A stretch of 43,248 nucleotides of DNA from an uncultured Candidatus Saccharibacteria bacterium (GTDB lineage: Bacteria; Patescibacteriota; Dojkabacteria; SC72), in NCBI GenBank assembly GCA_964557565.1, contig CAZLAH010000002.1, positions 17,682 to 60,929 on the forward strand, written 5' to 3'. The translations under genes and the position numbers were made by a program. Shown here in pieces: positions 1-39,200 of the stretch. How positions within the stretch are numbered: the first letter of the stretch is position 1; the number at the start of each line of letters is the position of its first letter. The notes under the pieces were generated by a model. That model saw nothing but the letters and a program-made list of their open reading frames with translations, searched no databases and was not told the origin of the DNA.

Positions 1-353
1 CTTCCAAGATCCTTGTCTATTTCCTGTACAAACTTAACATTTGAAGGCCATCTACCATCCACATATCCTGATTCACTCCTGTATGTAGTAACCTGAACCT
101 CATGTGTTTCTCCTTTCGCATCCTGCACTAATGCCATTACTGTACCAAACTTAGCCCCTGTTGAAACTGCTTTTGGAAAAAGATTTAGCATCTCATCCGG
201 CAGAGCATTTGATGCTAAATCATAGTCATGTGGCTCCTTCCCTATAACAACATCCCTCAAAGCGCCACCTACTAGGTAGCATTCAAAACCCTCTTTAACA
301 AGGATTCTCGCTACTTTTTGTACATATTCCGGTACTTTTATTGTAATCTTCAT
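1..353 (-). CDS. cca: CCA-adding enzyme / tRNA nucleotidyltransferase-poly(A) polymerase family, N-terminal part (C-terminus cut by window edge)
   Basis: Own translation from the ATG at 351-353 (minus strand): MKITIKVPEYVQKVARILVKEGFECYLVGGALRDVVIGKEPHDYDLASNALPDEMLNLFPKAVSTGAKFGTVMAL... It has the GGxLRD and DxD motifs of the pol-beta-type nucleotidyltransferases. A GGAGG Shine-Dalgarno (358-362) lies 4 nt upstream. The ORF is absent from the supplied track because it is partial. Confidence 0.8.
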   Translation of the reverse strand, partial: MKITIKVPEYVQKVARILVKEGFECYLVGGALRDVVIGKEPHDYDLASNALPDEMLNLFPKAVSTGAKFGTVMALVQDAKGETHEVQVTTYRSESGYVDGRWPSNVKFVQEIDKDLG

Positions 354-1533: not shown

Positions 1534-1590
1534 ATGTATATTCCTAAGAATTTATTAGGAATATTTTATTCTAGCGACATTAAATACCTA

Positions 1591-5648: not shown

Positions 5649-5689
5649 ACAAATTGACTAAGCTATATACTTTACAATATCATGAGTAT

Positions 5690-6895
5690 ATGAAATCTGC
5701 CAAAATATTAATAGTAAGTATATATACATTTTCAATATTACTAAGTACCACTAGGGTATTAGCGAACGATCTTGATTCTACAAATTACAAACTTGTAGGA
5801 GTAACCACTACTGCAGGAGGTGGATTAGGAGACTCCTCAGGATACAGTTTGATCTCAACTACAGGCGATATATCTGCGAATCCAAGAATATATTCTTCTA
5901 ATTACAGATTGAATCAAGATCCTTCTGCGAATTTTGTTGCCGCTCAACCAAATGTTCAGTGTTTTGAAACTGATACGGACGGAACTACATATTGCAATTC
6001 TGGTCCTACAGAATTACTGGAGGGAGGAATGGTTGCAATTTGCGGTCCAAGTGGTTGCTATGACAAAGCAAGATTTGAGATAGAACCTTTCTCAAACCCG
6101 GAAGACACTCTTTACAGCATTCAGGTTTCAATAGATGGGTTTTCTACAGATACAAAATGTATAGATGGTTCAACATTCAGACCAAAAGATTTAGCATCAT
6201 GCACAATAAATGATTTTAGAACAGAGGAGTATTGGGAGGATGAGGTTTTTAATATACAAGGTCTTCAGCCAAATACTCAGTACAGCATAAAGATAACTGC
6301 TTTACATGGGGATTTTACACAGTCTGACTTCAGCAGTATTGCAACAGCAACTACTGCAGAGGGAAGTATCGAATTTGATATTGATATTGCAGATAGTACT
6401 GGTGTATCAACAGAGACATCAGCACCCTATTCTATTGCATTTACAGGAGAAAAGGAGTTAATTGCAGGAGCATCAGCCACTACTGCCTCGGATCTAATTT
6501 GGTTAGATGTAATTAGTAGTTCCTCCGGAGGTTTCGCTATCATACAATTTGGGAAAAATGGAGGGTTATACAGTCCTACTACAACACAAACAATTCTTTC
6601 AACAAATATTGATTTAGATACCCCAATGACAGAGGGTTTCGGTTTACAAAGTTTCTATACAGACACAGAAGAGATATCTTCGTATTACGGTAATATATCA
6701 GCAACTACAAATTATGCTGGTTCTTTGAATATAGTAGGAGAAGTGGCAACATCAGGTAGAAAAATTTATGAAGGAGATGGTCCTGTCAAAGGAGGAAGAA
6801 TGGGAATATATCTTAAAGCAAAAGCTGATGTAGAAAAAACTCCAGCGTCAGATTATACAGAAGAAATCTATTTCATTTTAGTACCATTATATTAA
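5690..6895 (+). CDS. Secreted surface protein with an FN3-like module and a C-terminal beta-rich domain shared with the next gene
   Basis: Signal peptide MKSAKILIVSIYTFSILLSTTRVLA when the ATG at 5690 is used (the track starts at a TTG at 5654). The S(T/S)NY(K/R)L motif occurs twice. An FN3-like stretch reads LQPNTQYSIKITALHGDFTQSDFS. The C-terminal part contains TEGFGLQS and ...ASDYTEEIYFILVPLY. Confidence 0.6.
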   Translation: MKSAKILIVSIYTFSILLSTTRVLANDLDSTNYKLVGVTTTAGGGLGDSSGYSLISTTGDISANPRIYSSNYRLNQDPSANFVAAQPNVQCFETDTDGTTYCNSGPTELLEGGMVAICGPSGCYDKARFEIEPFSNPEDTLYSIQVSIDGFSTDTKCIDGSTFRPKDLASCTINDFRTEEYWEDEVFNIQGLQPNTQYSIKITALHGDFTQSDFSSIATATTAEGSIEFDIDIADSTGVSTETSAPYSIAFTGEKELIAGASATTASDLIWLDVISSSSGGFAIIQFGKNGGLYSPTTTQTILSTNIDLDTPMTEGFGLQSFYTDTEEISSYYGNISATTNYAGSLNIVGEVATSGRKIYEGDGPVKGGRMGIYLKAKADVEKTPASDYTEEIYFILVPLY

Positions 6896-6911
6896 GAAAA
6901 TCTTTTCTCTA

Positions 6912-6940
6912 TTGACATTCTCTACCTATTTTATTATGTT
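6912..6940 (+). promoter_or_regulatory. Candidate sigma70-type promoter for the 6988 gene
   Basis: TTGACA (6912-6917), 17 nt spacer, TATGTT (6935-6940). Confidence 0.35.
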
Positions 6941-6987
6941 TTATACATACTTATTACGTATATTAAATATAGCTGTCCCGTATTAAT

Positions 6988-8121
6988 ATGAATAAAAGAA
7001 GATCCCTCGCTCTCTCGCTTTTTCTTCTACTATCGATAGTTGGGTCTTTCTTTCTTTTGCTCCCTAGTTTTAAATCAGATGCTGGATCATTAACTGCAGC
7101 ATATATGTACTTAAGTAGAATTAAAACAGATATAGACGGCTCGACTGCTACGGTGGAATACGTAGTAGCATTAGCACCTGCACAAACAATACCTACTGGA
7201 GGAACAGTTACCTTGTATTTCCAAGAAGACGACGACGCATACTGGTGTAGAACAGCAGGTGCCTTAACAGTCGAGGGGGTTGCTCTCTCTGCTGCAGATA
7301 TGTCATCTACAAACTGGGCAATTGATTCTGCCCTGCCATCTTCAAGTACACTTTCTGCGACTTGCACACAAGGATCCGATGCTAGTTCTGTAGATACTAT
7401 TACTATTTCAAATGTCGGAGAATTAACTGCAGGAACAACATATGGTGTCAAGATTACAAATGGCTCAACTGCTGGAGTAATTGGTACTGACGATACAGCT
7501 GGTGAGCATAATGTTACAATAGAAGCAAAGAATGGTACAACGATTGATTCAAGTACATTCAAAGTATATTTAATCGCAAACGATCAAGTTGTCGTATCAG
7601 CAACTGTCGCCTCTATTCCATCTGTTAATTGCAGTATCAGTACTAATTCAATAGATTTGGGATCTCTCTATCCTGGAGGTTCTTTCTCAACTGGGAACCA
7701 TACAATTGCAACTAGTACATCTGCAACCACTAGTGGATATTACTGGGCAGTATACGGTGAAGGCGACGGTTCTACAGATGCAGGACTTTACAAATCTTCT
7801 GCTACGACATACCTTTTAGCTTCAACGGGTAGCACAACTATAGATTTAACAACTCCGGGAGGAGAAGGTTTTGGATTAGTTGCTTCTGATCCAGACGGAG
7901 CAGGAACAGCAAGTATCACTACTGATTTTAGTAATGGTACTCCCGGAGTTTTTGGTGCGCTAGATAGAGGCCCTGCAGGTGCTCAGCTATTACTTTACCA
8001 AAATGGCCCAGAGACAGTGTCTGAAAGTTCAACTATTACATATGGAGCAAAAGCTGGAACATCAGCGGTAGCAGGAAGTTACCAGGAGACCGTAACTTTC
8101 TCTTGTGGTGGTTACTATTAA
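6988..8121 (+). CDS. Secreted Thr/Ser/Gly/Ala-rich surface protein (putative fibre/adhesin subunit)
   Basis: Signal/TM sequence MNKRRSLALSLFLLLSIVGSFFLLL. The composition is low in charged residues. The C-terminal domain (SVNCSISTNSIDLGSLYPGG ... GEGFGLVAS ... AGSYQETVTFSCGGYY) parallels the C-terminus of the preceding protein. Confidence 0.6.
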   Translation: MNKRRSLALSLFLLLSIVGSFFLLLPSFKSDAGSLTAAYMYLSRIKTDIDGSTATVEYVVALAPAQTIPTGGTVTLYFQEDDDAYWCRTAGALTVEGVALSAADMSSTNWAIDSALPSSSTLSATCTQGSDASSVDTITISNVGELTAGTTYGVKITNGSTAGVIGTDDTAGEHNVTIEAKNGTTIDSSTFKVYLIANDQVVVSATVASIPSVNCSISTNSIDLGSLYPGGSFSTGNHTIATSTSATTSGYYWAVYGEGDGSTDAGLYKSSATTYLLASTGSTTIDLTTPGGEGFGLVASDPDGAGTASITTDFSNGTPGVFGALDRGPAGAQLLLYQNGPETVSESSTITYGAKAGTSAVAGSYQETVTFSCGGYY

Positions 8122-8123
8122 CT

Positions 8124-9125
8124 ATGAAAAACAACAATTTACTTGCTGCCCCGCATATATACAAAAACTTCGCGCTTTTACTAATTACAGTAATTCTTTT
8201 TTTCTTTTCAATAGAAACACCTGTAGATGCCCAGTCTGCTCTTTCAATTGGAATGGCACCACCATCTAAGAAGTTAAATCTCAAACAATCACAAATATAC
8301 ACAGGAGAAATAGTAGTTTGGAATCTCTCTCAAGTTACTACAAAGTACAAAATTGTTGTAAAAGGTTTCCGACAAATTGAAAACCAACCAGGTACCGCAA
8401 TGATATTAACTGAGGAAGAAGAATCGAGAACTCTCTATTCCGCTTCGGAATGGATCTCCATCTCTAGAGGTGAAATAGATTTAGTCCCGAACAAAAACGA
8501 GAAAATATATTACAAGATAGAGGTTCCAGACGATGTTACCAAAGGAGAGTATCTTGCTATGATTGCTTTCATTTCAGAATCTGAAAACAAGTCTTTGGGA
8601 ACTGCAGCTTTTACTACACTCTCTTCAGGAGTTCCAATGCTAATAAAAGTGGGAGAAGATTTTGTAGAAAATGCAGAATTACTTAAGTTTGAAACAGACA
8701 AAAATTTTTACGAAACCCCTTCTGTAAGATTTTTAACAAGAATTAAGAATTTAGGAGATACACATATCTCCCCCATTGGAGAAATAGTTCTCACAAATAT
8801 TTTCAACCAAGAAATTACCCGAATACCTTTTAATGAAAATTTCCAAAGTATATTAAGAGGAAACAATGGCGAATACAATATAGATTGGAATTATGGCTCT
8901 TTCTTAACAAAAGAAAACGAAATTGTGCTAGGTCCAATCAAAGCTAACTTAATTGTTACTTACAGAAATTTCCAACCAGGCTTCTCTCCAATAATTGCTG
9001 AAACTTCTTTCTGGATCATACCTTGGAAATATATACTCCTAATAATTCTCACAATAGTAACCGTTGTGATATTATGGAATTTGAGGAAAAGAAGAAAGAA
9101 TATACCTCAACCATTACCTAAATAA
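8124..9125 (+). CDS. Two-domain surface protein with C-terminal TM anchor (DUF916/DUF3324, CscA-like by pattern)
   Basis: The ATG at 8124 lies 2 nt after the preceding stop. It has a signal peptide (…LLLITVILFFFSIETPVDAQS). Ig-like pattern: ASEWISISRGEIDLVPNKNEKIYYKIEVPDDVTKGEYLAMIAF. The second domain contains PIGEIVLTN. The C-terminus has a TM helix WKYILLIILTIVTVVILW followed by NLRKRRKN. Confidence 0.6.
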   Translation: MKNNNLLAAPHIYKNFALLLITVILFFFSIETPVDAQSALSIGMAPPSKKLNLKQSQIYTGEIVVWNLSQVTTKYKIVVKGFRQIENQPGTAMILTEEEESRTLYSASEWISISRGEIDLVPNKNEKIYYKIEVPDDVTKGEYLAMIAFISESENKSLGTAAFTTLSSGVPMLIKVGEDFVENAELLKFETDKNFYETPSVRFLTRIKNLGDTHISPIGEIVLTNIFNQEITRIPFNENFQSILRGNNGEYNIDWNYGSFLTKENEIVLGPIKANLIVTYRNFQPGFSPIIAETSFWIIPWKYILLIILTIVTVVILWNLRKRRKNIPQPLPK

Positions 9126-10057
9126 TGCATAATAGCGACATGATTAAATCTTTAGGAGTTACAATCTTACTCTTGGTCTTTTGGATATTACCTTTTTCTA
9201 ATGTATATGCAAATATGGTTGTAACACCATTCAAAGAAGAAGTCCTGATATCCGCACAAGAGAAAATTAGAGAAACTCTCTCCCTCAAAAACAATGGTAA
9301 AGAAATAGTAAAGGTTTCCCCTGTTGTCTTTTCTTACAACCCTCAGACACAAACATTGATTGATACTGAGAACTATATCTTTGTTAGAACAGATAAAGAG
9401 ATATTTACAATTAAGCCAAAAGAGACTTTAACATTAAACTATGAAATAGTCCCCCCGCTAAATATTAAACCTGGTACATATTTCAACCTGATTATATTAA
9501 AAAAGGAAGAAGAAGCTATAAAAGATATTTCAAAAAATCCTATAGGAGCTATAGACTCACTATCCCATCTAGTAGTTATGCATGTAAAAGATGAAGAGAA
9601 TTCAGTAATAGGTATAACTTCAGACTTTGCATTAACTACAATTTCCATAGAAGAAAATGGAATACCATTCATTAGGCCAACAAAGATAAAGTATGTTTAC
9701 CAAAATATTTCTAACTATGTGCTTGAACCTCTTGGAGAGATACAGATATACAACAACAAGGGTAACTATGCACCAAAGTATATTAAAATAAATGAAGAGA
9801 AGGAAAAGCTATACCCAGGAGGAACAATTGAGAAGATTATAGATATCAACGAAATACATATTTCAGATATTCTCAATGGTAGATCAATAGTAGGAAGGTT
9901 TTACAACGGTATAGACGAGGGATTTAAGATTATAGAATTAAGACAAGAACCAAATTACTTATTTATTTCTATATTCTGTATATCATTGGGAATATTGATT
10001 ATTCTCCTAAAGAGCTTACTCTTTGACAGAAAAAAGCTTAGAAAGAATTCTGCATAA
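9125..10057 (+). CDS. Paralogous two-domain surface protein with C-terminal TM anchor (CscA-like by pattern)
   Basis: The start overlaps the previous stop (TAATG). It has a signal peptide and the same layout as the preceding gene: VVTPFKEEVLISAQEKIRETLSLKNNGKEIVKV..., PLGEIQIYNNKG..., and a C-terminal TM helix LFISIFCISLGILIILL followed by DRKKLRK. Confidence 0.6.
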   Translation: MHNSDMIKSLGVTILLLVFWILPFSNVYANMVVTPFKEEVLISAQEKIRETLSLKNNGKEIVKVSPVVFSYNPQTQTLIDTENYIFVRTDKEIFTIKPKETLTLNYEIVPPLNIKPGTYFNLIILKKEEEAIKDISKNPIGAIDSLSHLVVMHVKDEENSVIGITSDFALTTISIEENGIPFIRPTKIKYVYQNISNYVLEPLGEIQIYNNKGNYAPKYIKINEEKEKLYPGGTIEKIIDINEIHISDILNGRSIVGRFYNGIDEGFKIIELRQEPNYLFISIFCISLGILIILLKSLLFDRKKLRKNSA

Positions 10058-10940
10058 CCTTTACTGTTGTCTTGAAACTAATCTTTGCTACTTTAGAGAG
10101 TTCTTCTACACCATTCTTTTGAACAAATTCTTTAGCACTATCGATAACATTTGAAGCTCCTTTGGGAAAATTGAAATAGTAATTCTTACTCATATTCTCC
10201 ATTTCTTCAAGAAATATACCTCTAGCTATTACAGATGCCGTAGCTACTGCAATATCTGATTCTCCTTTATGATATTGCCTGAAATCTACCTCTTTGCCTA
10301 AAACACCTAATTCATTGATTACCCTACTCTTTTGAGAAGAAAACTGATCTATTACTACATAGTCACACCGTATATTCTTTGTTTTCAAATCACTTAAACC
10401 CATCTCTATGACCTTAGAATGCTGTTTTGCGAGAAGTATAGAGACATTCTTGTATTCTTTGTACAATTCATTATATTCAGAAGGAGAAACAACAGATGAA
10501 TAGTAAAACTCATAATCCCGCAGAGAAGAATACATCTTCAATATTCTTTCATCAGAGAATTTCTTTGAATCTCCTACTCCCAAACAAGATATCTTTTCCA
10601 TAATATCCTTATTTACAAAACAAGCTACTACAACAAGGGGTCCAAAATAATCACCTTTACCAACTTCGTCTACACCAATATGAGGTGAGAGATCTTCTTT
10701 TGTACCATCATTACATCCTTCTTTGATTAAAGATATTGTCTCGGAAAAGTCTTCACTACCCTGTAAAACCATCTTCTTACTAGTATACACAGTACATACA
10801 GAACCTCTTTTGTTTTTCATTCTTAAAGCTACATATTCATTGTTAAATGGATATTCTTCCCAACCATGTACAAGAAGCACACTCTTAAGATCTTTGATAT
10901 CTTGAACATCTAATTGTATAGAGACAGTATTTTGAGCCAT
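10038..10940 (-). CDS. rnhC: Ribonuclease HIII
   Basis: An N-terminal TBP-like substrate-binding domain of about 85 aa, then an RNase HII/HIII core with GVDEVGKGDYFGPLVVVACF. Length 300 aa. Confidence 0.8.
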   Translation of the reverse strand: MAQNTVSIQLDVQDIKDLKSVLLVHGWEEYPFNNEYVALRMKNKRGSVCTVYTSKKMVLQGSEDFSETISLIKEGCNDGTKEDLSPHIGVDEVGKGDYFGPLVVVACFVNKDIMEKISCLGVGDSKKFSDERILKMYSSLRDYEFYYSSVVSPSEYNELYKEYKNVSILLAKQHSKVIEMGLSDLKTKNIRCDYVVIDQFSSQKSRVINELGVLGKEVDFRQYHKGESDIAVATASVIARGIFLEEMENMSKNYYFNFPKGASNVIDSAKEFVQKNGVEELSKVAKISFKTTVKVMQNSF

Positions 10941-10941
10941 A

Positions 10942-12420
10942 TTATTTCCTTACTAACTTTTGACCTTCTGAAGTATCTAAAACAGTATATCCTAATTCTA
11001 GTAGTTGATCTCTAATTTGATCCGCCTTTTCGTAGTTCTTTTCTTCTTTCGCAATTTTTCTGTCTTGCAAAAGCTCTTCTGCTTTTGGGAAAGTTATATC
11101 ATCAGAGACTCCAATGTGATCTACGAAAGTGAGTGACAGCTCTGTTATATTCTCTAAATCCAATCCAAGTACTTTGTCAAAATCAAGAATTGTAGAAAGA
11201 ATATCTTCTTTCTTTTCGTCTGATTTAAGTAACTCATTCACTAATGCCAATATTCCAGACATATTGAGATTGTTGTTTAAAAGTTCTTTAAATCTCGAAA
11301 CATAATCTAACAACAAATCACCTTTCGTATCTCCCAAAGCTCTAATCTTAGTATTTAGATTCAATCTAGCATTCTTTGCCCCTAAGAGAGCTTCTTGAGA
11401 ATACTGAATTCTTGTTCTGTAATTAATTGAGAGAAAAAGATATCTCAAATCTAATGCTTTAAAACCATCACTTATTAATTCTGGTAATGTAGATGCTCCA
11501 CCACTACTTTTAGAAAGCTTACCATTATCACTATTTACTAGCCATTCATTATGTACCCAGTACTTTACCACTGGATGTCCGAATGCTCCAATATTTTGAG
11601 CCCTCTCATTTGTATGATGAACAGGGATATGATCTATACCACCAGTATGAATATCAAATCTTTCTCCAAGTATCGCGGTACCCATTGCAGAACACTCTAT
11701 GTGCCATCCAGGGAATCCATCCCCCCAAGGAGAAGACCAATTCATGATATGGTCTTTGTATTTACCAACTCTTTTCATCCAAAGTACAAAATCAGCTGGA
11801 TGTTTCTTTAAAGGGTCAACATCTACTTCCTCTCTAACTGCTGTCTCTTTTTCGTCTAAATTTTGTCCCGTAAATATTGTATAGTCAGGAATTTTAGTAA
11901 CATCAAAATACAATGCCTGTTCTGTCTCATATGTATATCCATTCTCAACTATCTTCTTTGTAATCTCTATCATTTCATTTACATATGATGTAGCTCTAGT
12001 CCAACCGTATTTTTCAACATCACTGAAAGTTAAATTGTCCGGAATAGTTTCTCCATTTGGAGCAAGTATATTTAGATTCCTAAAGTCTTCCAAGACTGTA
12101 TCAATGTATTTGTTTGCTATATCAATCGGTTGAATACCTTCTCTTTCTGCTTGTCTGTCCATTTTATCCTCACCGAAATCACTTCCGAAATCATCAGTAG
12201 AAGACATATGACCTACATCTGTAATATTCATTACTCTTTTTACATCATATCCTAAATACAAAAGTGCCCTATGCAATATATCCCAGTTTACATATGATCG
12301 AATATTTCCAATATGCATTCTAGAATATACTGTAGGACCACAGCTATACATGGATATCTCTCCATCCTTATTTGGTTGTATTTCTACAATACCCTTATCT
12401 AGTGTTGAATATATTTTCAT
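10942..12420 (-). CDS. cysS: Cysteine--tRNA ligase
   Basis: SCGPTVYSRMHIGNIRSY (HIGH motif), WHIECSAM, KLSKSSG (KMSKS motif). Length 492 aa. Confidence 0.9.
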   Translation of the reverse strand: MKIYSTLDKGIVEIQPNKDGEISMYSCGPTVYSRMHIGNIRSYVNWDILHRALLYLGYDVKRVMNITDVGHMSSTDDFGSDFGEDKMDRQAEREGIQPIDIANKYIDTVLEDFRNLNILAPNGETIPDNLTFSDVEKYGWTRATSYVNEMIEITKKIVENGYTYETEQALYFDVTKIPDYTIFTGQNLDEKETAVREEVDVDPLKKHPADFVLWMKRVGKYKDHIMNWSSPWGDGFPGWHIECSAMGTAILGERFDIHTGGIDHIPVHHTNERAQNIGAFGHPVVKYWVHNEWLVNSDNGKLSKSSGGASTLPELISDGFKALDLRYLFLSINYRTRIQYSQEALLGAKNARLNLNTKIRALGDTKGDLLLDYVSRFKELLNNNLNMSGILALVNELLKSDEKKEDILSTILDFDKVLGLDLENITELSLTFVDHIGVSDDITFPKAEELLQDRKIAKEEKNYEKADQIRDQLLELGYTVLDTSEGQKLVRK

Positions 12421-13043
12421 TATATATCTCTCCTTCCTTCTAATGCTTTTTTTAATGTTAACCTATCTGCATACTCTAGATCTGCACCTGTTGGTAATCC
12501 CATTGCTAATCTAGTTATCTTTATTTTACCCTCTTTTACTAAATTCTTAAACAGATCAATAACGTAGCTAGCAGTAGCCTCACCCTCTAAACTTGGATTT
12601 GTAGCGACAATGATTTCTAATGAATCTTCGTTAGTTAACAACTCCTCTACTCTCTTTTTTAACTCCTTGAATCTTAACTCATCTGCTCCAATTCCTTCAG
12701 AAGGAGATATGACTCCACCTAAAACAAAATACAAGCCATCATATACACCTGAATCCTCAAAAGCTACTACATCCAAAGGTTCCTCTACTACACATACTTT
12801 CTCTTTCTTTCTCAGTGGACTACTACAAATTTCACACTCATCATCCTCCGATACATTGAAACATTTCTTACAATTTTTAACAGAACTCTCCATTTCCAAA
12901 AGAGAGTTAGCTAACTTAGAAGCATCCATATTGGGAGAACGAAGATAGTGATATGCCATTCTAGATGCAGACTTAGGACCAATACCTGGTAATTTACTAA
13001 ACTCCTCTATCACTTGTTTAACACTCTTTGGTAAAACAGACAT
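12420..13043 (-). CDS. recR: Recombination protein RecR
   Basis: LPGIGPKSASRMAYHYL (HhH), a C4 zinc finger CKKCFNVSEDDECEICSS and a Toprim region. It follows ybaB, as in the conserved dnaX-ybaB-recR cluster. Confidence 0.9.
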   Translation of the reverse strand: MSVLPKSVKQVIEEFSKLPGIGPKSASRMAYHYLRSPNMDASKLANSLLEMESSVKNCKKCFNVSEDDECEICSSPLRKKEKVCVVEEPLDVVAFEDSGVYDGLYFVLGGVISPSEGIGADELRFKELKKRVEELLTNEDSLEIIVATNPSLEGEATASYVIDLFKNLVKEGKIKITRLAMGLPTGADLEYADRLTLKKALEGRRDI

Positions 13044-22920: not shown

Positions 22921-24057
22921 TTATTTTACAGCCTTCAATATTTCGTCTACTGCTTTTGCACCAATACCTTTTACAGAAAGTAATTCCTCTTTAGGAGTAC
23001 TCTTTATCTTTGAGATTGTATCTAAACCAGCATCTCCCAAAGCTTTTACAACTCTTGCAGAAAGACCTAATTCTTCAACACCTTTACTGTCTGCTTCTTG
23101 TTTTGCTTTCTCTGCAGCCTCTATCTCAGCATTAATATCTTTTTCCTTTTTTACAACTCTAACAACAGAGCTTGTACTCTCAGCTTGCACCTTTCCTTCT
23201 CTAAGTGATTTCATTCTTTCTCTTTCTTCATTTACCATTCTTGCTACTCTTTCCTTCTCATCTGCGAAATCTTTAGAAAGTTTACTTAACATTGCTTCAT
23301 GAGCATTTCTTAAAGATACAACAGAAAGAGATTTTGGTGACTTACCAACAACATCTCCCAAAATATTTGCAAAAAGAGAAATACTCTTCAAAGAGTCATC
23401 ATTAGCAGGAATTGGGAAATCTACTAAATCAGGATTACAGTTTGTATCTAGCAATGCTACTACAGGAATACCTGCAACTTTTGCTTCCTTTATTGTATTT
23501 TCTTCTACCTTAGTATCTACAACTATCATTACTTCAGGAAGTTTATCCATGAATTTGATACCTTGATATATTCTATTCAACCTCTCAACATCTCTTTCCA
23601 TTAACAAAACTTCTTTCTTAACCAATCCTTGTGCTCCTCTAGCCAACTGCTCTTCCATCTTTATTAATCCCTGAACACTCTTCTTTATAACTTCAAAATT
23701 AGTAAAAAGACCTCCAGGCCATCTTCTGTTAATGTAGAACATACCATTCTTTTCAGCAACAGACTGGACGATGGATGCTGCTTGTCCTTTAGTACCAACA
23801 ATCAAAACATTTCCTCTCTCTGAATATTTAACTAACTCAGACAATGCATTCTCAAGAAGCTCTCTTGTCTTTACCAAGTCTATTATATGAATACCATTTC
23901 TTTCCTCATATATATATTTCTTCATACGTGGATTCCAAGCACTTTTTTTATGCCCAAAGTGAGATCCTGCTTGAAGCAATTCTATTAATTCTGGAATTTG
24001 AAAACTTTTGTTTTTAGTCTCTGTTTTCTCTAAGACTTCTTTTTGTACTTCTTTCAT
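22921..24057 (-). CDS. rpsB: 30S ribosomal protein S2 with a C-terminal extension of about 130 aa ending in an HhH (RpoA alphaCTD-like) module
   Basis: S2 core (LLQAGSHFGHKKSAWNPRM..., IVGTKGQA, VVDTKVEENTIKEAKVAGIPVVALLDTNCNPD). This is followed by a charged coiled region and then VEELGLSARVVKALGDAGLDTISKIKSTPKEELLSVKGIGAKAVDEILKAV. Confidence 0.9.
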   Translation of the reverse strand: MKEVQKEVLEKTETKNKSFQIPELIELLQAGSHFGHKKSAWNPRMKKYIYEERNGIHIIDLVKTRELLENALSELVKYSERGNVLIVGTKGQAASIVQSVAEKNGMFYINRRWPGGLFTNFEVIKKSVQGLIKMEEQLARGAQGLVKKEVLLMERDVERLNRIYQGIKFMDKLPEVMIVVDTKVEENTIKEAKVAGIPVVALLDTNCNPDLVDFPIPANDDSLKSISLFANILGDVVGKSPKSLSVVSLRNAHEAMLSKLSKDFADEKERVARMVNEERERMKSLREGKVQAESTSSVVRVVKKEKDINAEIEAAEKAKQEADSKGVEELGLSARVVKALGDAGLDTISKIKSTPKEELLSVKGIGAKAVDEILKAVK

Positions 24058-27032: not shown

Positions 27033-27710
27033 TTATGGGAAGATATTAAGCAAGACCTGATCTCCTCTAAATCCAACTATTTCCCTGAAGTCATCTTTGC
27101 TAGATACCATATTGGCACCCTCTTTTAGGAGCATATTACAACCTAAAGAAAAATGATTATTGATATTACCAGGAACAGCATATACCTCTCTGTTGTATTC
27201 TAGCGCATATCTAGCTGTAATTAATGATCCACTTTTTTCCCCAGCCTCAATTACTACTGTAGTATCCGAGATTCCAGCTAGTAACCTATTTCTCAAGACA
27301 AACATTTCTTTACCTAATTTCTTGTACTGTGGAAATTCCGCAAGAATTAATCCATCCTTTTTAATATCCTCATATATATTACTGTTCTTTCTTGGTATTG
27401 CAGAAGTCATGCTACCTGGAACAATCGCAACTGTTTTAATACCACGTTCTATACATGTTTGGTGAACAAATGCATCTACACCTAAAGCCAACCCACTTAC
27501 AAAAACAATATCTAAATATCTAAAATCTTCTTCTAAAAAGCTTCTAATTAGCATCTTCCCATACTCCGTAATATTCCTTGTCCCAACAATTGATATACAT
27601 CTCATCTTTAAAAGCTCTATATTTCCTTCATAGTACAAGGTATGGGGAGGATCATATATTTCCTTCAAAAGATATGGATATATTGAATCTGTATATTTTA
27701 ATTCCTGCAT
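27033..27710 (-). CDS. dprA: DNA-processing protein DprA/Smf (Rossmann core only, 225 aa)
   Basis: YPYLLKEIYDPPHTLYYEG, IVGTRN, SGLALGVDAFVHQ, GEKSGSLITARYALEYNREVYAVPG. It lies next to topA, a common synteny. Confidence 0.85.
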   Translation of the reverse strand: MQELKYTDSIYPYLLKEIYDPPHTLYYEGNIELLKMRCISIVGTRNITEYGKMLIRSFLEEDFRYLDIVFVSGLALGVDAFVHQTCIERGIKTVAIVPGSMTSAIPRKNSNIYEDIKKDGLILAEFPQYKKLGKEMFVLRNRLLAGISDTTVVIEAGEKSGSLITARYALEYNREVYAVPGNINNHFSLGCNMLLKEGANMVSSKDDFREIVGFRGDQVLLNIFP

Positions 27711-34851: not shown

Positions 34852-34926
34852 GGGCCCATAGTTTCAATGGTAAAATAGCGGTCTCCAAAACCGTGGTTCT
34901 CCGTTCGAATCGGAGTGGGCCTGCCA
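34852..34926 (+). tRNA. tRNA-Trp (anticodon CCA), CCA end encoded
   Basis: GGGCCCA...GCGGT-CTCCAAA-ACCGT...CTCCG-TTCGAAT-CGGAG-TGGGCCT-G-CCA. Confidence 0.88.
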
Positions 34927-34937
34927 AAAATAAAAAT

Positions 34938-35111
34938 ATGAAAAGCATAAAGAATATAATAACAGAACTAAAAGCAACCAAGTGGCCATCAAAGGTAGCA
35001 ATACTCCAGATGACAGTATATACAATAATATTATGTGGTATACTTGCAGCCATTATGGTAGGACTAGACCTTGTACTTTTTGAAATACGAGACTGGTTTC
35101 TTAATATTTAA
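34938..35111 (+). CDS. secE: Preprotein translocase subunit SecE (single-TM form)
   Basis: From the ATG at 34938: MKSIKNIITELKATKWPSKVAILQMTVYTIILCGILAAIMVGLDLVLFEIRDWFLNI. The upstream part of the track ORF overlaps tRNA-Trp. Confidence 0.8.
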   Translation: MKSIKNIITELKATKWPSKVAILQMTVYTIILCGILAAIMVGLDLVLFEIRDWFLNI

Positions 35112-35121
35112 TTGATCTAAA

Positions 35122-35679
35122 ATGACAAAAGAAGCAAAAAACAAAAAAGAGAACCCTAATGCAAAATGGTATGTATTAAACATTAGAACTGGATATGAGA
35201 ATAGCATTCAAAAGGAAATAAAGCAGAGAGCAGAAGCAACTGGTATGCAAGACCAAATTGTAGAAATATTGGTACCTGTACAGAAGAAAATCTTTGTAAA
35301 AAAAGGCAAACAAGATATAAAAGAAGAGAAGATTTTTCCTGGATATGTACTCATAAAGATGGAATTAGACAACAAAACATGGGATTTAGTTCAAAACACA
35401 GAAGGAGTAAGAGGCTTTGTTAAAACAGATAGATACCCAAAGCCATTAGCAGAATCAGAAGTAAAAGCTATTACAAAATTCATGGAAGTAGAACAACCTT
35501 CATATCAGTCATCCTTTAGTGTTGGAGAGGCTGTTAAAATTACAGAGGGTGCATTTGCAGATTTCATTGGTAGCGTACAGGAAATAGATACAACTAAGGG
35601 TAAGATAAAAGTCCTCATCTCATTCTTAGGAAGAGAAGCGCCGGTGGAATTAGAACTATCACAAGTAACAAAACTTTAA
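35122..35679 (+). CDS. nusG: Transcription termination/antitermination factor NusG
   Basis: NGN domain KWYVLNIRTGYENSIQKEI and KOW domain GEAVKITEGAFADFIGSVQEID. Confidence 0.9.
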   Translation: MTKEAKNKKENPNAKWYVLNIRTGYENSIQKEIKQRAEATGMQDQIVEILVPVQKKIFVKKGKQDIKEEKIFPGYVLIKMELDNKTWDLVQNTEGVRGFVKTDRYPKPLAESEVKAITKFMEVEQPSYQSSFSVGEAVKITEGAFADFIGSVQEIDTTKGKIKVLISFLGREAPVELELSQVTKL

Positions 35680-35696: not shown

Positions 35697-36122
35697 ATGG
35701 CAAAACCAATTAAGAAAGTAATCAAGATAACAATACCAGCAGGAATGGCTACTATGGCACCTCCAATAGGTCCTACCCTAGCCCCTTATGGTATAAATGC
35801 TCAAGATTTCTGTGCTCAATTCAATGAGAAAACAAGAGAAAGTAATGGAATTCTTACTCCTGTAATTTTAACAATCTATGACGATAGATCTTTCTCATTC
35901 ATTTTGAAAACTCCCCCTACTTCCGAATTAATCCGAAGAGAGTTAAAAATCAAAAGAGGATCTGAGAAACCAAACTTAAACAAGGTTGGAAAACTCTCAA
36001 AAGAGCAATTACAAAGAATAATTGAAATAAAAATGCCCGATCTAAACACTACCAACACAGAGCAAGCAGCTAAGATCATAGCTGGAACTGCAAAACAGAT
36101 GGGTGTGGAGGTAGAACTTTAA
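35697..36122 (+). CDS. rplK: 50S ribosomal protein L11
   Basis: IKITIPAGMATMAPPIGPTLAPYGINAQDFCAQFNEKT... Confidence 0.92.
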   Translation: MAKPIKKVIKITIPAGMATMAPPIGPTLAPYGINAQDFCAQFNEKTRESNGILTPVILTIYDDRSFSFILKTPPTSELIRRELKIKRGSEKPNLNKVGKLSKEQLQRIIEIKMPDLNTTNTEQAAKIIAGTAKQMGVEVEL

Positions 36123-36139
36123 TTAACACAGATATCAAT

Positions 36140-36826
36140 ATGAAAAGAGGAAAAAAACATATAAAAATAACTAAAGATTTAGACAGAAGCAAAGCATATT
36201 CTTTGTTAGATGGTATAAAGAAAGTAAAAGCACTCTCCTACTCTAAATTTGTAGGGACATTAGAATTACATGCTGATGTTAAATTACCAAAAGATAAAGA
36301 TCCCAAATCTATTAAAGGCGCTGTTTCTTTGCCTAATGCAGGTACAGTAAAAACAGTAAAGATAGCTGTATTTGCTACCCCTGATAGAGATGAAGAAGCA
36401 AAGAAAGCAGGAGCAGATATTGTAGGAATGGATCAATTGATGAAAGATATCAAAGAAGGAAAAATTGAATTTGATGTAGCTATTGCTACACCTTCAGTTA
36501 TGCCTAAGATTGCAGTTTTAGGAAAAGAATTAGGTCCAAAAGGCCTTATGCCTAACCCAAAAAATGGTACTGTAACAGAAGATTTATCTTCTGCAATTAG
36601 TGAGTACAAAAAAGGAAAACAGACATTTGTCTGCGATGCCTCCGGCGTTATACATATGAATGTTGGGAAATTAGATTTAGAAGAATCTAAGCTCATAGAA
36701 AATATTCATACAGCAATAGATGCAATCTCCGAGGTAGTTGGAAAACCATATGAACAGATGATTCAAAGGATACACTTAGCACCTACAATGGGCCCAAGTG
36801 TAAAGATAAACTATACTAGAGAATAA
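36140..36826 (+). CDS. rplA: 50S ribosomal protein L1
   Basis: ...FVGTLELHADVKLPKDKDPKSIKGAVSLPN..., LGPKGLMPNPKNGTVT. Confidence 0.92.
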   Translation: MKRGKKHIKITKDLDRSKAYSLLDGIKKVKALSYSKFVGTLELHADVKLPKDKDPKSIKGAVSLPNAGTVKTVKIAVFATPDRDEEAKKAGADIVGMDQLMKDIKEGKIEFDVAIATPSVMPKIAVLGKELGPKGLMPNPKNGTVTEDLSSAISEYKKGKQTFVCDASGVIHMNVGKLDLEESKLIENIHTAIDAISEVVGKPYEQMIQRIHLAPTMGPSVKINYTRE

Positions 36827-36850
36827 TTCTTTCTACTTACAGTGATCATA

Positions 36851-36879
36851 AAAAAGACCCCTACCAAGGGGTCTTTTTG
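36851..36879 (+). terminator. Rho-independent terminator after rplA
   Basis: AAAAA-GACCCC-TACCAA-GGGGTC-TTTTT. The flanking A and T tracts mean it could act in both directions. Confidence 0.75.
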
Positions 36880-36886
36880 TTCTATA

Positions 36887-36915
36887 TTTACAAAAACGAA
36901 ACTATCCTATAGAAT
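36887..36915 (+). promoter_or_regulatory. Candidate promoter for small ORF 1
   Basis: TTTACA (36887-36892), 17 nt spacer, TAGAAT (36910-36915). Confidence 0.4.
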
Positions 36916-36956
36916 ACCACTTGTCTTTGCTCTTTAGGGAATGAAAGGAGAACATT

Positions 36957-37301
36957 GTGGCAAAAAGAAAGCCTCAAACTTTAATGTTTGGAGAAAAAAA
37001 ATACTCCTTGGTAACAGATTTTGGCGATGCAGTTCTAGCCAAACAAGAAGGATCCACCGATCTTTTCTTTATCATTCAGAAACTTGATGAAATTTTCAAG
37101 GTTCAAACAGATAATGATGAGATCAGAGTCCTTCTCCGAGGAGATAAGGTTTTTGTGAATGGAATCACAATTGGAATTAAAAAAAGTTGTGATTTGTATC
37201 GTGGACAGAAACACATCTTTGTAAAGAAGAGTAATCGTACAATGACAATTGTCGTAGATAAAGTTACACTTCTTCGTGTGTTCATTCCTGCTTTCGGATA
37301 A
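36957..37301 (+). CDS. Hypothetical small protein (114 aa), GTG start
   Basis: AAAGGAG (36944-36950) lies 6 nt before the GTG. No recognisable family. The N-terminal region resembles small ORF 2 (AVLAKQEGSTDLFF versus IILAKRQGKEFRF). Confidence 0.5.
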   Translation: MAKRKPQTLMFGEKKYSLVTDFGDAVLAKQEGSTDLFFIIQKLDEIFKVQTDNDEIRVLLRGDKVFVNGITIGIKKSCDLYRGQKHIFVKKSNRTMTIVVDKVTLLRVFIPAFG

Positions 37302-37338
37302 CAAAATCAAACCTACCCCCTAAAGAACAAAAGACAAA

Positions 37339-37411
37339 AGTGAGTCTAGTAGAGAATGCTGAAAAGCAACCTAGGAGCATTTCAGCTTCAATATCCCCTA
37401 CTAGACTCACT
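37339..37411 (+). repeat. Long hairpin element, copy 1
   Basis: 14-bp perfect arms AGTGAGTCTAGTAG (37339-37352) / CTACTAGACTCACT (37398-37411), enclosing a nested GCTGAAA...TTTCAGC hairpin. It is preceded by AAGACAAA. Confidence 0.8.
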
Positions 37412-37490
37412 GGCAACACCTTTACAAATCCCACTACAAAAGATAAAATCATCCCCTTGTTCTTAAAACTCAAAAAGGAGATCTAAAACA

Positions 37491-37655
37491 ATGAAATTGT
37501 ACGATGTTGCAGGAATCAAAAGATTCACATTCAAGAAGAATATTTTCATTTTTATTTCCAAAGATCCTGAAACTGGGATAATCCTCGCCAAAAGGCAAGG
37601 AAAAGAATTCCGATTTCAGGAAGAAAATAATGGGAAATTAACCCTCCTAAGATAG
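37491..37655 (+). CDS. Hypothetical small protein (54 aa)
   Basis: Own translation: MKLYDVAGIKRFTFKKNIFIFISKDPETGIILAKRQGKEFRFQEENNGKLTLLR. AAAGGAG (37474-37480) lies upstream. The ORF is below the track cutoff. Confidence 0.45.
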   Translation: MKLYDVAGIKRFTFKKNIFIFISKDPETGIILAKRQGKEFRFQEENNGKLTLLR

Positions 37656-37663
37656 AAGACAAG

Positions 37664-37728
37664 AGTGAGTCTAGTATACGAATGCCAAGAAGGCAGAAAA
37701 CCATAATTGGCTTCATACTAGACTCACT
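37664..37728 (+). repeat. Long hairpin element, copy 2
   Basis: Arms AGTGAGTCTAGTAT (37664-37677) / ATACTAGACTCACT (37715-37728), 13/14 identical to copy 1. It is also preceded by AAGACAAG. The interior differs in sequence but again forms a nested hairpin (GCCAA...TTGGC). Confidence 0.8.
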
Positions 37729-37741
37729 GATACACTCTTAA

Positions 37742-37770
37742 TTGAAAATCTTCGATATATCAGGTAAAAT
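37742..37770 (+). promoter_or_regulatory. Candidate promoter for small ORF 3
   Basis: TTGAAA (37742-37747), 17 nt spacer, TAAAAT (37765-37770). Confidence 0.45.
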
Positions 37771-37829
37771 AACTTGGCAACACAAGCTTGTTGCTCATTA
37801 TATCCTAAGTATTAGAAAAGGAGTCCCAT

Positions 37830-38042
37830 ATGGATTGCAAATGCTGTACATTATTGGAGTGCTCCCCAGAATGCCCTTCCTTCAAAAAAAAGGAAGACCT
37901 AAACAAACTGTTACTCAGATACTTCCAAAACAAAATCTTTTGGGAAGCTCTAGGGGAAATTCCAGAATCCGATCAGGATCTTTGCAATCTCTTTGAAAAA
38001 CTACTACAAAAGGAGGGCCTCGAGCCGATAAGTGTTGCATAG
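37830..38042 (+). CDS. Hypothetical Cys-rich small protein (70 aa)
   Basis: AAAGGAG (37817-37823) lies 6 nt before the ATG. The N-terminus MDCKCCTLLECSPECPSF has 5 Cys in 14 residues. The C-terminal two-thirds are predicted helical and acidic. Confidence 0.5.
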   Translation: MDCKCCTLLECSPECPSFKKKEDLNKLLLRYFQNKIFWEALGEIPESDQDLCNLFEKLLQKEGLEPISVA

Positions 38043-38073
38043 CTTTTCTTCAGCAACAGACTTGTGTTAAAAC

Positions 38074-38122
38074 AAGAGAGAATGGTAGATTACCATTAAA
38101 GTATCACATACCATTCTCTCTT
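38074..38122 (+). terminator. Long hairpin after small ORF 3; 3' arm abuts/overlaps the rplJ promoter -35
   Basis: AAGAGAGAATGGTA (38074-38087) / TACCATTCTCTCTT (38109-38122), 14-bp perfect arms with a nested ATGGTA-GAT-TACCAT. There is no U-tract. Confidence 0.45.
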
Positions 38123-38149
38123 GACCCTCCCCTCTCCTACTGATATAAT
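38121..38149 (+). promoter_or_regulatory. Near-consensus promoter of rplJ-rplL
   Basis: TTGACC (38121-38126), 17 nt spacer, TGA-TATAAT (an extended -10; TATAAT at 38144-38149). Confidence 0.65.
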
Positions 38150-38172
38150 CGCTCTAGTATTAACCTAAGAAA

Positions 38173-38195
38173 CAGGGTACAAAAATAAATCCCTG
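38173..38195 (+). promoter_or_regulatory. Hairpin in the rplJ leader (possible L10-leader autoregulatory element)
   Basis: CAGGG-UACAAAAAUAAAU-CCCUG in the 5' UTR of about 85 nt. rplJ has no obvious SD. Confidence 0.3.
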
Positions 38196-38237
38196 CGAGG
38201 TAAATATTAAATCCTAATTAATTAAAAATAAATAACC

Positions 38238-38759
38238 ATGTCTAAATCTCGTATACAAAAGACAGAGTTACTAAGCGATTACAAAAAGATCCTAGAAGAT
38301 AAAGCTGGATATTTTTTGGTAAACTCTGATAAAACAGACACATCTACAATTACAAAACTCAAGATACAATTGAGAGATGCAAATGCTAACTATGCTGTTG
38401 TTAAAAACAGTATATTTAAAGTAGCACTACAAGAGACAAATCAACCTCTTCAAACACAAGAGATAGATGGTCCAACAGCAGTAATATATTTTGATGAAGA
38501 TCCTACAGTACCAGCAAAATTAGTAAAACAGGCTCAAAAAGAGACATCTCTTTTAGATGCAAAAGGTGGAGTTTTTGAAGGAGAGTTCCTTTCCGAAGCA
38601 AGAGTAATGCAATTAGCAGATATACCTTCTAGAGAAGTTCTACTTTCTCAATTAGTCGGTACATTGAATGCACCTCTAACTGGATTCATGAATGCAGTAA
38701 CTGGAAATGTAAGAGGTTTAACTATGGTTCTTAAGGGCATATCTGAAAAGAATGCTTAA
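38238..38759 (+). CDS. rplJ: 50S ribosomal protein L10
   Basis: MSKSRIQKTELLSDYKKILEDKAGYFLVNSDKTDTSTITKLKIQLRDANANYAVVKNS... Confidence 0.9.
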   Translation: MSKSRIQKTELLSDYKKILEDKAGYFLVNSDKTDTSTITKLKIQLRDANANYAVVKNSIFKVALQETNQPLQTQEIDGPTAVIYFDEDPTVPAKLVKQAQKETSLLDAKGGVFEGEFLSEARVMQLADIPSREVLLSQLVGTLNAPLTGFMNAVTGNVRGLTMVLKGISEKNA

Positions 38760-38795: not shown

Positions 38796-39200
38796 ATGGC
38801 AGAAGAGACAAAAAACTTACCAGAATTAACAGAGAACGGAACAAAAGTTCTTGAAATGGTAGAAAAGATGTCTGTGTTAGAGCTTGCTGACCTTGTAAAG
38901 GTTATGGAAGACAAGTTTGGAGTAAGTGCAGCAGCACCTGTTGCAGTAGCAGCAGTAGCAGCAGCTCCAGCAGAAGAAGTAGAAGAGAAATCTACATTCG
39001 ATCTTGTTCTTAAAGAAGCAGGAGCTAACAAGATTGGTGTAATCAAAGCTGTAAGAGAAGTTACAGAGTTGGGTCTTAAAGAGGCAAAAGATCTCGTAGA
39101 GGCAGCACCACAGACTGTTAAAGAAGGTGTAGCAAAAGCAGATGCTGAAGCTATGAAAGCAAAATTCGAAGAAGCAGGAGCAACAGTAGAATTAGTATAG
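38796..39200 (+). CDS. rplL: 50S ribosomal protein L7/L12
   Basis: Ala/Pro/Val hinge [20 protein letters not shown], then [24 protein letters not shown]... Confidence 0.92.

Follow-up and report, generated by a model that had tools for sequence, protein, structure and literature searches.

We analyzed a 43-kb stretch of DNA (the window) from Candidatus (Ca.) Dojkabacteria (WS6; Candidate Phyla Radiation, CPR; Patescibacteria), in which the spacer between the ribosomal protein genes rplA and rplJ carries three small open reading frames (ORF1, ORF2, and ORF3), and compared it with related loci, designated by L-numbers (e.g., L001). The surrounding cluster contains nusG (35122-35679), rplK (35697-36122), rplA (36140-36826; Pfam Ribosomal_L1, E 1e-49), rplJ (38238-38759; Ribosomal_L10), and rplL (38796-39200), and secE is encoded in the same region. 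A search performed with L1 assigned the window to Ca. Dojkabacteria, the best match being 80% identical. The spacer occupies positions 36827-38237 (1411 bp), and the same spacer was found at 99.4-99.9% identity in four independent assemblies from public sequencing runs, which excludes an assembly artefact. GC content is 0.35-0.39 throughout, and base composition gives no foreign mark to the insert. Each ORF was found to lie in what appears to be a self-contained monocistronic unit, or cassette, made up of a promoter, a box in the 5′ untranslated region (5′UTR), a Shine-Dalgarno (SD) sequence, the small ORF, and a long imperfect hairpin; for ORF1 and ORF3, an additional stem is predicted to bracket the ORF.

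All elements of the spacer are on the plus strand. The first is the intrinsic terminator of rplA (rplKA operon; 36851-36878), a 12-bp stem followed by a U-tract, which is kept as AAGACCTC..GAGGTCTTTTT in at least 20 relatives. Cassette 1 begins with the promoter TTTACA-17-TAGAAT (36887-36915), whose -35 (TTTACA) and -10 (TAnAAT) hexamers are kept in 24 relatives regardless of the ORF family downstream; a 5′UTR motif around GCTCTT is likewise kept in those 24 genomes with any ORF family. The 5′UTR box (36921-36939), conserved in L087, L001, L032, L008, and L005, holds TTGCTCTTTA (36927-36936) and serves as the 5′ arm of the predicted stem around ORF1. It is followed by the SD sequence AAAGGAG (36944-36950), ORF1 (36957-37301), and a 3′UTR arm, CCCTAAAGAACAAAAGACAA (37318-37337), that is complementary to the box and conserved in L087 and L001. 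Hairpin 1 (H1; 37339-37411) closes the cassette with a 14-bp outer stem and an inner stem in which GAA(T bulge)GCTGAAA pairs with TTTCAGCTTC; its z-score, which compares fold stability with that of shuffled sequence, is -5.8.

Cassette 2 has the promoter TTTACA-17-TAAAAT (37421-37449), of which both hexamers are kept in L001 though the intervening spacer varies, the 5′UTR box TTGTTCTTAA (37457-37466), the SD sequence AAAGGAG (37474-37480), ORF2 (37491-37655), and hairpin 2 (H2; 37664-37728; z -6.0). H2 is a second copy of the H1 type that shares the outer stem and the 5′ flank; its inner stem, GAA(T)GCCAA with TTGGCTTC, differs from that of H1 yet is compensated and still pairs. In cassette 3, the promoter TTGAAA-17-TAAAAT (37742-37770), with its -10 hexamer GGTAAAAT and transcription-start region kept in L001, precedes the 5′UTR box TTGCTCATTA (37791-37800). 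This box overlaps the 5′ arm (37779-37795) of the stem predicted around ORF3, which forms an inverted repeat with the 3′ arm (38052-38068). The SD sequence AAAGGAG (37817-37823), ORF3 (37830-38042), and hairpin 3 (H3; 38073-38123; 15-bp perfect stem, z -4.9) complete the series, and the last 3 nt of the H3 stem overlap the -35 box of the rplJ promoter, TTGACC-17(TG)-TATAAT with an extended TG (38121-38149). Since ORF2 has a conserved promoter of its own, the spacer is read as three monocistronic units plus the rplJ promoter. The terminator, promoters, SD sequences, ORFs, and hairpins listed in an initial annotation of this DNA were all present at the places it gave (hairpin z-scores -4.9 to -6.0), although that annotation had missed both the ORF2 promoter (37421-37449) and the kinship of H1 and H2.

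Several of these signals stand out from the rest of the window. The box TTGYTCWTWA occurs in the 5′UTR of all three cassettes and once, inverted, in the 3′UTR of ORF1, with one other match in 43 kb. Promoter-like hexamers by themselves were not enriched (16 found vs. 15.8 expected); the four named promoters are conserved among relatives. AAAGGAG precedes each of the three cassette ORFs, and its AAGGAG core was found ahead of only 1 of the 41 other genes in the window, about 30 of which have nothing SD-like, including nusG, rplK, rplA, rplJ, and rplL. SD sequences are thus rare in this genome outside the cassettes, and the earlier statement that those of the three ORFs are stronger than those of many housekeeping genes, with none at rplJ, was borne out.

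The hairpins show signs of conserved structure. H1 and H2 are copies of one element, sharing AAGACAARAGTGAGTCTAGTA and TACTAGACTCACTG (21 nt and 14 nt), and are direct repeats 325 bp apart. In an alignment of eight H1-type copies, 97% of cells were paired and four pairs were compensated, and none of 500 shuffles reached the observed score. H3-type hairpins of 14 relatives showed compensatory changes in 5 of 14 pairs, with a few G-U pairs (plus strand). The hairpins lie 9-13 nt upstream of the next -35 box or overlap it, and H1-H3 have no U-tract, unlike the real terminators after rplA and rplL. The H1 motif was not found outside the rplA-rplJ spacer in the window or in 80 related loci, a scan of metagenomes returned only rplA-rplJ spacers plus unrelated palindromes, and the hairpin pattern was not found in viral contigs. 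A repetitive extragenic palindrome/bacterial interspersed mosaic element (REP/BIME) or a miniature inverted-repeat transposable element was therefore rejected, as the H1 motif occurs only in rplA-rplJ spacers. Rfam families were also rejected for the spacer (gathering threshold for the window, E ≤10 for the spacer), the matches being at chance level and mostly from the rplA terminator.

The predicted transcripts of ORF1 and ORF3 fold with the bracketing stem closing the ORF and the terminal hairpin left (z -6.8 and -4.6, respectively). For the module that precedes H3 in 14 genomes, complementarity between a genome's own 5′UTR and 3′UTR averaged -13.8 kcal/mol, compared with -8.4 kcal/mol when 5′UTRs and 3′UTRs of mismatched genomes were combined (0 of 10000 permutations). 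The pairs are genome-specific, examples being GACAGAC/GTCTGTC, CAAACCAACC/GGTTGGTTTG, and AACCGA/TCGGTT. End-pairing is known from other RNAs, such as rRNA precursors, whose stems are cut by RNase III, and hok-type mRNAs, which fold back from 5′ to 3′ end. Those RNAs resemble the cassettes in having complementary 5′ and 3′ flanks that close a stem around a functional segment; they differ in that the segment enclosed here is the ORF of a small soluble protein, and an RNase III site or antisense RNA is known only there. A type I (hok-like) toxin was rejected, as the fold-back is present for ORF1 and ORF3 but the proteins are soluble.

Between the rplJ promoter and the rplJ start codon lies a 5′ leader (38150-38237) with a helix formed by 38163-38165/38199-38201 and 38173-38177/38191-38195. 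Six of its eight pairs are compensatory across 41 genomes, and a compensatory pair of single nucleotide polymorphisms (SNPs), G38175A with C38193T, was seen among strains. The leader did not match the Rfam L10 leader (RF00557) at the gathering threshold or at E ≤10. It shares with that leader its conservation, its covariation, and its place after the rplJ promoter and ahead of the start codon; it differs in escaping the RF00557 model and in sitting downstream of the cassettes. It is probably a lineage-specific L10 autoregulatory site that is separate from the cassettes.

The protein of ORF1 (114 aa, GTG start, pI 9.7) belongs to a hypervariable family, F1, and is predicted to be all-beta; its AlphaFold2 model has 11 strands (pLDDT 84, pTM 0.72). 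The GTG start is supported by its alignment with the ATG starts of the L001 and L087 counterparts, and the codon usage of ORF1 falls within the host-gene range in its own frame and in no other. ORF2 encodes 54 aa (pI 10.1), and one other allele type is known. ORF3 encodes a 70-aa protein of family F3 (pI 4.7, six Cys) with an N-terminal C-x2-C..C-x3-C, two helices, and a C-terminal EGLxPI motif, modeled by AlphaFold2 as a Cys knuckle followed by a two-helix hairpin (pLDDT 76). Across 12 clusters of F3, four invariant Cys and EGLxPI are maintained despite complete nucleotide turnover. None of the three proteins is hydrophobic (maximum KD19 0.26-1.44), and all are soluble/cytoplasmic by prediction.

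The initial annotation recognized no family for these ORFs, and searches of Pfam, PHROGs, NCBIfam, and PADLOC agreed, giving nothing below E 0.02. A PDB sequence search with family profiles found no match. Foldseek searches with the ORF1 and ORF3 models against PDB, and with ORF1 against BFVD, gave a best E of 0.011 and TM ≤0.35; beta-propeller-blade and Tsi1-like structural matches were rejected as insignificant, none being below E 0.01. Homologs of F1, F3, and the ORF2 type found database-wide are all hypothetical proteins of Dojkabacteria without a Pfam domain. An exhaustive HMMER search of 1.84 billion representatives with the F1 profile returned 28 matches, about 24 of which have a single domain and 105-132 aa; three large repeat proteins with marginal matches were rejected as compositional noise following a Pfam scan. 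F1 comprises at least 24 clusters below 50% identity. Wherever the context of F1 and F3 members elsewhere could be retrieved, they were always located between rplA and rplJ.

The ratio of non-synonymous to synonymous substitution rates (dN/dS), determined for moderately close pairs, was 0.12 for F1 (L007/L011) and 0.02 for the ORF2 type (L001/L086), compared with about 0.55 for a set of ORFs that merely overlap hairpins. Values of 0.02-0.12 within allele lineages argue that these are real genes, and the small proteins appear to be under purifying selection within an allele lineage. The initial annotation had left the reality of the frames to a comparison of this spacer among relatives; there, frames of the same families stay open, at the dN/dS values given above for the ORF1 family and the ORF2 type, and this comparison thus does not refute them.

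Comparison with relatives showed that the content of this interval varies widely. In about 45 genomes with an L1 65-80% identical, the rplA-rplJ spacer measures 166-4384 bp, and in more distant Dojkabacteria and other phyla it measures 130-260 bp. The commonest state, found in about 20 genomes (415-620 bp), consists of a promoter, a single small ORF, an H3-type hairpin, the rplJ promoter, and the leader. An ORF3-type Cys-rich gene with hairpin 3 and the rplJ promoter represents the basal state of the clade. L044, a clade member with a 166-bp spacer, has the promoter and leader only and is free of ORFs. In longer spacers, there are two or three small-ORF modules, and some spacers contain ordinary genes: L021 (~7475-10900) and L024 (~6820-10240) have two genes like those of short-chain dehydrogenases/reductases (SDRs) and NAD-epimerases plus ORFs of 198 and 270 aa, L018 has one SDR-like gene, and L033 has a 439-aa ORF. 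Runs of N (100 and 208 nt) hide part of the L016 and L021 spacers, respectively, so that their cassette content is incomplete. These comparisons bear on two earlier claims. The view of the spacer as an accreted, modular accessory region is supported by its repeated promoter/SD/ORF/hairpin units, which are absent from the short spacers of distant relatives. The description of the interval as a single 1.4-kb insertion has to be replaced, in that the window holds one state of a slot that is lineage-wide, spans 166-4384 bp, and contains one module in about 20 genomes.

The ORF families of the slot include F1 (~110 aa), F3 (N-terminal C-x2-C..C-x2-3-C, C-terminal EGLxPI), a "PCCVC" Cys-rich family, a family with a Cys4 motif and a beta-domain ending in DPNW, a 92-aa family, and the ORF2 type. 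Family members in 46 spacers were all on the plus strand, and inversion (shufflon/inverton) between the inverted repeats that flank ORFs was rejected on this ground. A Cys4 motif was found fused N-terminally to a beta-rich domain in L005, L012, L023, L027, L031, L033, L034, and L043, and in L010 and L052. The 92-aa family (L087, L007, L019) matches the C-terminal part of the L052 "PCCVC" fusion (E 7e-9). Such fusion proteins suggest domain shuffling among the slot families. Profile-profile comparison gave weak results (probability 28% for F3 vs. "PCCVC" and 49% for "PCCVC" vs. the 92-aa family), and the Cys-rich families may share an origin.

When the window's spacer was mapped by blastn to 46 others, coding and regulatory DNA behaved differently. 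In none of these genomes was there a nucleotide sequence similar to that of ORF1 (36943-37292), of ORF2 plus its 5′UTR (37452-37655), or of ORF3 (37797-38051). The blocks that are shared with the window were the first promoter with its 5′UTR (five genomes), the H1 block (four genomes), H3 (8-24 genomes), and the rplJ promoter with its leader (35-43 genomes). L087, which with L088 comes from two Joint Genome Institute metagenomes, has flanking genes 85-94% identical to those of the window and an H1 block that is 92% identical. The counterpart of ORF1 there, an F1 allele of 120 aa, shows 34% amino acid identity, its coding DNA is unalignable, and the two alleles differ along their whole length. 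Positions 37423-38119 of the window, which start about 10 nt past H1 and reach into the final bases of H3, are swapped in L087 for an unrelated 92-aa ORF and a different hairpin.

Across ten genomes that carry F1, identity between F1 proteins was flat, at 18-39%, and did not track relatedness. In L011 and L012, L10 and L12 are 100% identical and F1 is 27% identical; in L019 and L032, ribosomal proteins are 92-98% and F1 is 35% identical. The sole exception is L007/L011, with F1 at 82%. The conserved islands in L011/L012 and L019/L032 are intergenic pieces that contain promoters. The flanks of L001 and L086 differ by ≤1.5%, and their ORF1 differs by two non-synonymous and zero synonymous changes (dS = 0). 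Their ORF2-type coding sequence is about 20% different, with differences clustered at 7342-7511, from 8 nt before the start codon to 3 nt after the stop codon, and the ORF3-type coding sequence is similarly divergent. Confinement of the divergence to coding sequences points to import of a diverged allele rather than to local decay. Overall, the conserved islands that limit the replacements are regulatory blocks, and the variable blocks are ORFs with or without their own hairpin; breakpoints differ between genome pairs and often fall at the edges of coding sequences or in promoters. In contrast to the differences between species, the four near-identical strains (99.4-99.9%) have 0-1 SNP in the ORFs, and ongoing hypermutation was rejected for this reason. 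A diversity-generating retroelement was rejected as well, given that the window encodes no reverse transcriptase, alleles differ over their whole length, and strains differ by 0-1 SNP.

That non-coding blocks are far better conserved than the ORFs could also mean that the ORFs are incidental and that the region is non-coding, serving the rplJL operon as a long, structured leader or as a processed RNA. Whole predicted transcripts do fold unusually well, with the z-scores of -6.8 and -4.6 reported above, and the codon-usage scores of ORF2 and ORF3 are weak. We nevertheless regard this explanation as very unlikely. Frames of the same family stay open across genomes that are saturated at the nucleotide level, dN/dS is 0.02-0.12, four Cys and a C-terminal motif are conserved, and the ORF1 fold is confident; a perfect SD sequence stands at the right spacing before each ORF in an SD-poor genome, and rplJ has a conserved promoter and leader of its own downstream.

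Taken as a whole, these observations suggest that the spacer is probably one state of a lineage-specific variable gene slot, located between the rplKA and rplJL operons in a subclade of Ca. Dojkabacteria, with turnover by recombination between regulatory units. The coding sequences appear as discrete, highly divergent alleles or as unrelated families, decoupled from the relatedness of the genomes, and the apparent mosaic breakpoints fall in or beside regulatory blocks. Cassettes would be gained, lost, and replaced via homologous recombination, for which the conserved and partly repeated units (stem-loop, promoter, 5′UTR box, and SD sequence) would provide the homology arms. The DNA was probably imported by natural transformation, which is made probable by the presence of DprA (27033-27710) and RecR (12420-13043; minus strand) in the window. 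A Pfam scan of 40 proteins of the 43-kb window found no recombinase, transposase, or reverse transcriptase domain. The hairpins and bracketing stems may attenuate or stop transcription that runs on from the highly transcribed unit upstream, and may protect or define mRNA ends; such insulation would keep each cassette and the rplJL operon separate. Discrete alleles, purifying selection, and exchange between lineages together point to balancing or diversifying selection, a pattern that would fit conflict or niche-specific accessory proteins, unlike core ribosomal components.

By analogy, the closest documented counterpart is the PeSL (promoter-early stem-loop) system of T4-type phages, in which modular shuffling is mediated by composite promoter/stem-loop elements that lie between ORFans and form mini-circles (Arbiol et al., 2010, PMC2839356); PeSL cassettes of the hyperplastic regions of these phages are described in a second source (Comeau et al., 2014, PMC4122927). 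As in PeSL, small ORFans are separated by repeated, composite intergenic units, each of which starts at a stop codon and includes a stem-loop, a sigma-70-type promoter, and an SD sequence, and the stem-loop is upstream of the -35 box (here by 9-13 nt) or overlaps it. Insertions, deletions, and replacements among relatives are bounded by the units (window/L087, L001/L086, L011/L012, L019/L032), and direct repeats, here H1/H2, could excise a cassette. The differences are also clear. PeSL elements occupy a phage genome in about 50 copies, whereas the cassettes are found at a single rplKAJL locus of a bacterial chromosome; the hairpins described here, at 51-73 nt, greatly exceed those of PeSL in length and are conserved in their internal architecture; and the ORF is enclosed by an extra 5′UTR/3′UTR stem. 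Only by analogy are promoter activity, terminator activity, and mini-circles attributed to the cassettes. With chromosomal copies in one spacer and a more elaborate structure, the locus would work like PeSL without being a member of it.

Other modular systems share fewer of these properties. Phage morons are also autonomous promoter/ORF/terminator units between two conserved genes, with accessory or undescribed cargo, but the cassettes have no phage context or homologs and their base composition is that of the host. A phage origin was rejected, as no relatives were found in 50,697 phage records (tblastn) or in IMG/VR (peptide scans). Chromosomal hotspots of gene turnover are intervals between core genes with high rates of gain, loss, and replacement and no mobile-element genes. 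The rplA-rplJ interval is likewise bounded by two core genes, high in turnover, and free of mobile-element genes; it differs in lying in the most conserved ribosomal cluster, in a cargo dominated by locus-specific small-ORF families, and in the conserved regulatory islands inside it. By these comparisons, the finding is best classed as regulatory-cassette-mediated modular shuffling or as a variable hotspot between core genes.

Tandem small ORFs that are each followed by an imperfect palindrome, with content varying between relatives, are also typical of integron cassettes with their attC sites. The spacer could accordingly be read as an integron-like array, i.e., an attC cluster without an integrase whose hairpins are single-stranded DNA sites for a tyrosine recombinase encoded elsewhere. 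Each ORF is indeed followed by an imperfect palindrome (51-73 nt) that has a bulged base and whose tip varies, two palindromes are near-identical, as in chromosomal integron repeats, and the block replaced in L087 begins about 10 nt after H1 and ends at the 3′ base of H3. We consider this explanation highly improbable, since neither strand of the spacer has a RYYYAAC...GTTRRRY pair (R boxes), the hairpin bases being AGTGAG../..CTCACT and CAAGAG../..CTCTTG, and no integrase is encoded in the 43-kb window. Each cassette has a conserved promoter of its own, whereas integron cassettes are mostly promoterless; breakpoints vary, with no single fixed point within the hairpin; H1-type hairpins are confined to this spacer; and G-U pairs in the stems favor an RNA of the plus strand. 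The cassette-type origin considered in the initial annotation pointed in the right direction, but not toward the integron type, given the lack of R-box pairs and of an integrase in the window.

The confinement of F1 and F3 genes to the interval between rplA and rplJ raises the question of what the proteins do. They could be lineage-specific partners or regulators of the ribosomal stalk, of the translation apparatus (L11, L1, L10, L12), or of rplJL expression, kept at this site for co-expression, in which case the cassette architecture would be secondary. This is consistent with the Cys-rich small gene, H3, and rplJ promoter being basal in about 20 genomes, with the overlap of H3 and the rplJ -35 box, with the basic nature of ORF1 and ORF2 (pI 9.7 and 10.1), and with conservation of the extreme C-terminus within each of the F3, F1, and "DPNW" families. 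On the whole, we find this explanation unlikely. Partners of a conserved machine would be expected to be conserved, and yet F1 is 27% identical where L10 and L12 are identical; unrelated families and SDR-type enzymes use the same slot, which is empty in L044 (166-bp spacer); and ORF3 is acidic (pI 4.7). No similarity to ribosomal or ribosome-associated proteins was found.

Divergent, discrete alleles under purifying selection and exchanged between lineages are also the usual signature of conflict loci. A conflict module, whether a toxin-antitoxin (TA) pair, a system against phages (abortive infection or another), or orphan immunity genes at a site of high expression, would further explain the arrays of small orphan genes, and the atypical translation signal could mean a foreign origin. 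This possibility seems quite unlikely. Searches of PADLOC, Pfam, NCBIfam, and PHROGs gave no match, the tblastn and peptide scans described above found no relatives in phages or viruses, the transcription units are separate, unlike a TA-type bicistron, no peptide is hydrophobic (maximum KD19 ≤1.44), and fold searches gave nothing below E 0.01. The suggestion of a TA-like origin in the initial annotation finds no support in these results: TA and defence matches are lacking, and the cassette ORFs are separate units about 175-190 nt apart, with a hairpin and a promoter in each gap. A type II TA system was rejected on the same spacing and the lack of Pfam, NCBIfam, and PADLOC matches. A conflict function is compatible with the cassette architecture proposed here, as it concerns the function of the proteins.

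Several points weigh against a variable slot that turns over by recombination. Promoter activity, terminator or attenuator activity, and translation of the ORFs are all predicted from sequence, and recombination is deduced from mosaic patterns. The effect of the hairpins on transcription is uncertain, since they have no U-tract and the genuine terminators at this locus do. Bracketing complementarity was not found for the window's ORF2 and is weak in 3 of 14 genomes. For both ORF2 and ORF3, the best codon score is that of the own frame, and it stays under the host-gene range. The extreme coding divergence between species that are about 85% identical could partly reflect fast evolution and not replacement. 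Finally, the families are known solely at this locus, so that a locus-linked, ribosome-related function fits at least as well as a generic accessory one.

An extension of the variable-slot reading, which we put forward tentatively and regard as doubtful, is that the locus might be a dedicated, hitherto undescribed expression and exchange platform of a CPR lineage. In it, a fixed scaffold of conserved promoters, 5′UTR boxes, bracketing stems, and structured hairpins, placed between the genes for the two ribosomal stalks, would present interchangeable, hypervariable Cys4 zinc-knuckle and small all-beta proteins that are kept as discrete alleles under balancing selection and moved by recombination. 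These proteins might be, for example, strain-specific factors that target the translation apparatus during conflicts with phages, hosts, or kin, and cassettes would possibly move through excised circles between repeated regulatory units. If true, such a platform would be a cellular counterpart of the PeSL shuffling of phages.

The window genes around the spacer are otherwise housekeeping genes, as judged by a Pfam scan. The longest frame of secE (34893-35111, GTG at 34893) overlaps tRNA-Trp (34852-34926), and the real start is probably further downstream. Ribosomal protein S2 (22921-24057, minus strand) has a C-terminal RNA polymerase alpha-CTD (PF03118, residues 315-376), an unusual fusion. 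Two further segments (295-3186 and 5654-10057) contain six ORFs of 310-531 aa without a Pfam match at E ≤1e-5.

A search of the literature on this locus in Dojkabacteria or Patescibacteria found nothing relevant. What is unexpected is the place of the cassettes inside rplKAJL of a CPR lineage, together with the ORF-bracketing stems, the locus-specific structured hairpins, and several orphan families of small proteins. The rplKAJL cluster is among the most conserved of bacterial gene arrangements, and yet it can apparently host fast accessory evolution, and does so in very small genomes. The locus offers lineage-specific small proteins that bear clear signs of selection and match no family or fold, and its predicted organization is a natural example of how monocistronic units that are insulated and strongly translated can be built compactly. 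It would also represent a cellular parallel to the promoter/stem-loop shuffling known so far from T4-type phages. Should the proteins prove to act on the ribosome or in a conflict system, the locus would provide a direct handle on CPR-specific biology, which is at present out of reach of cultivation.

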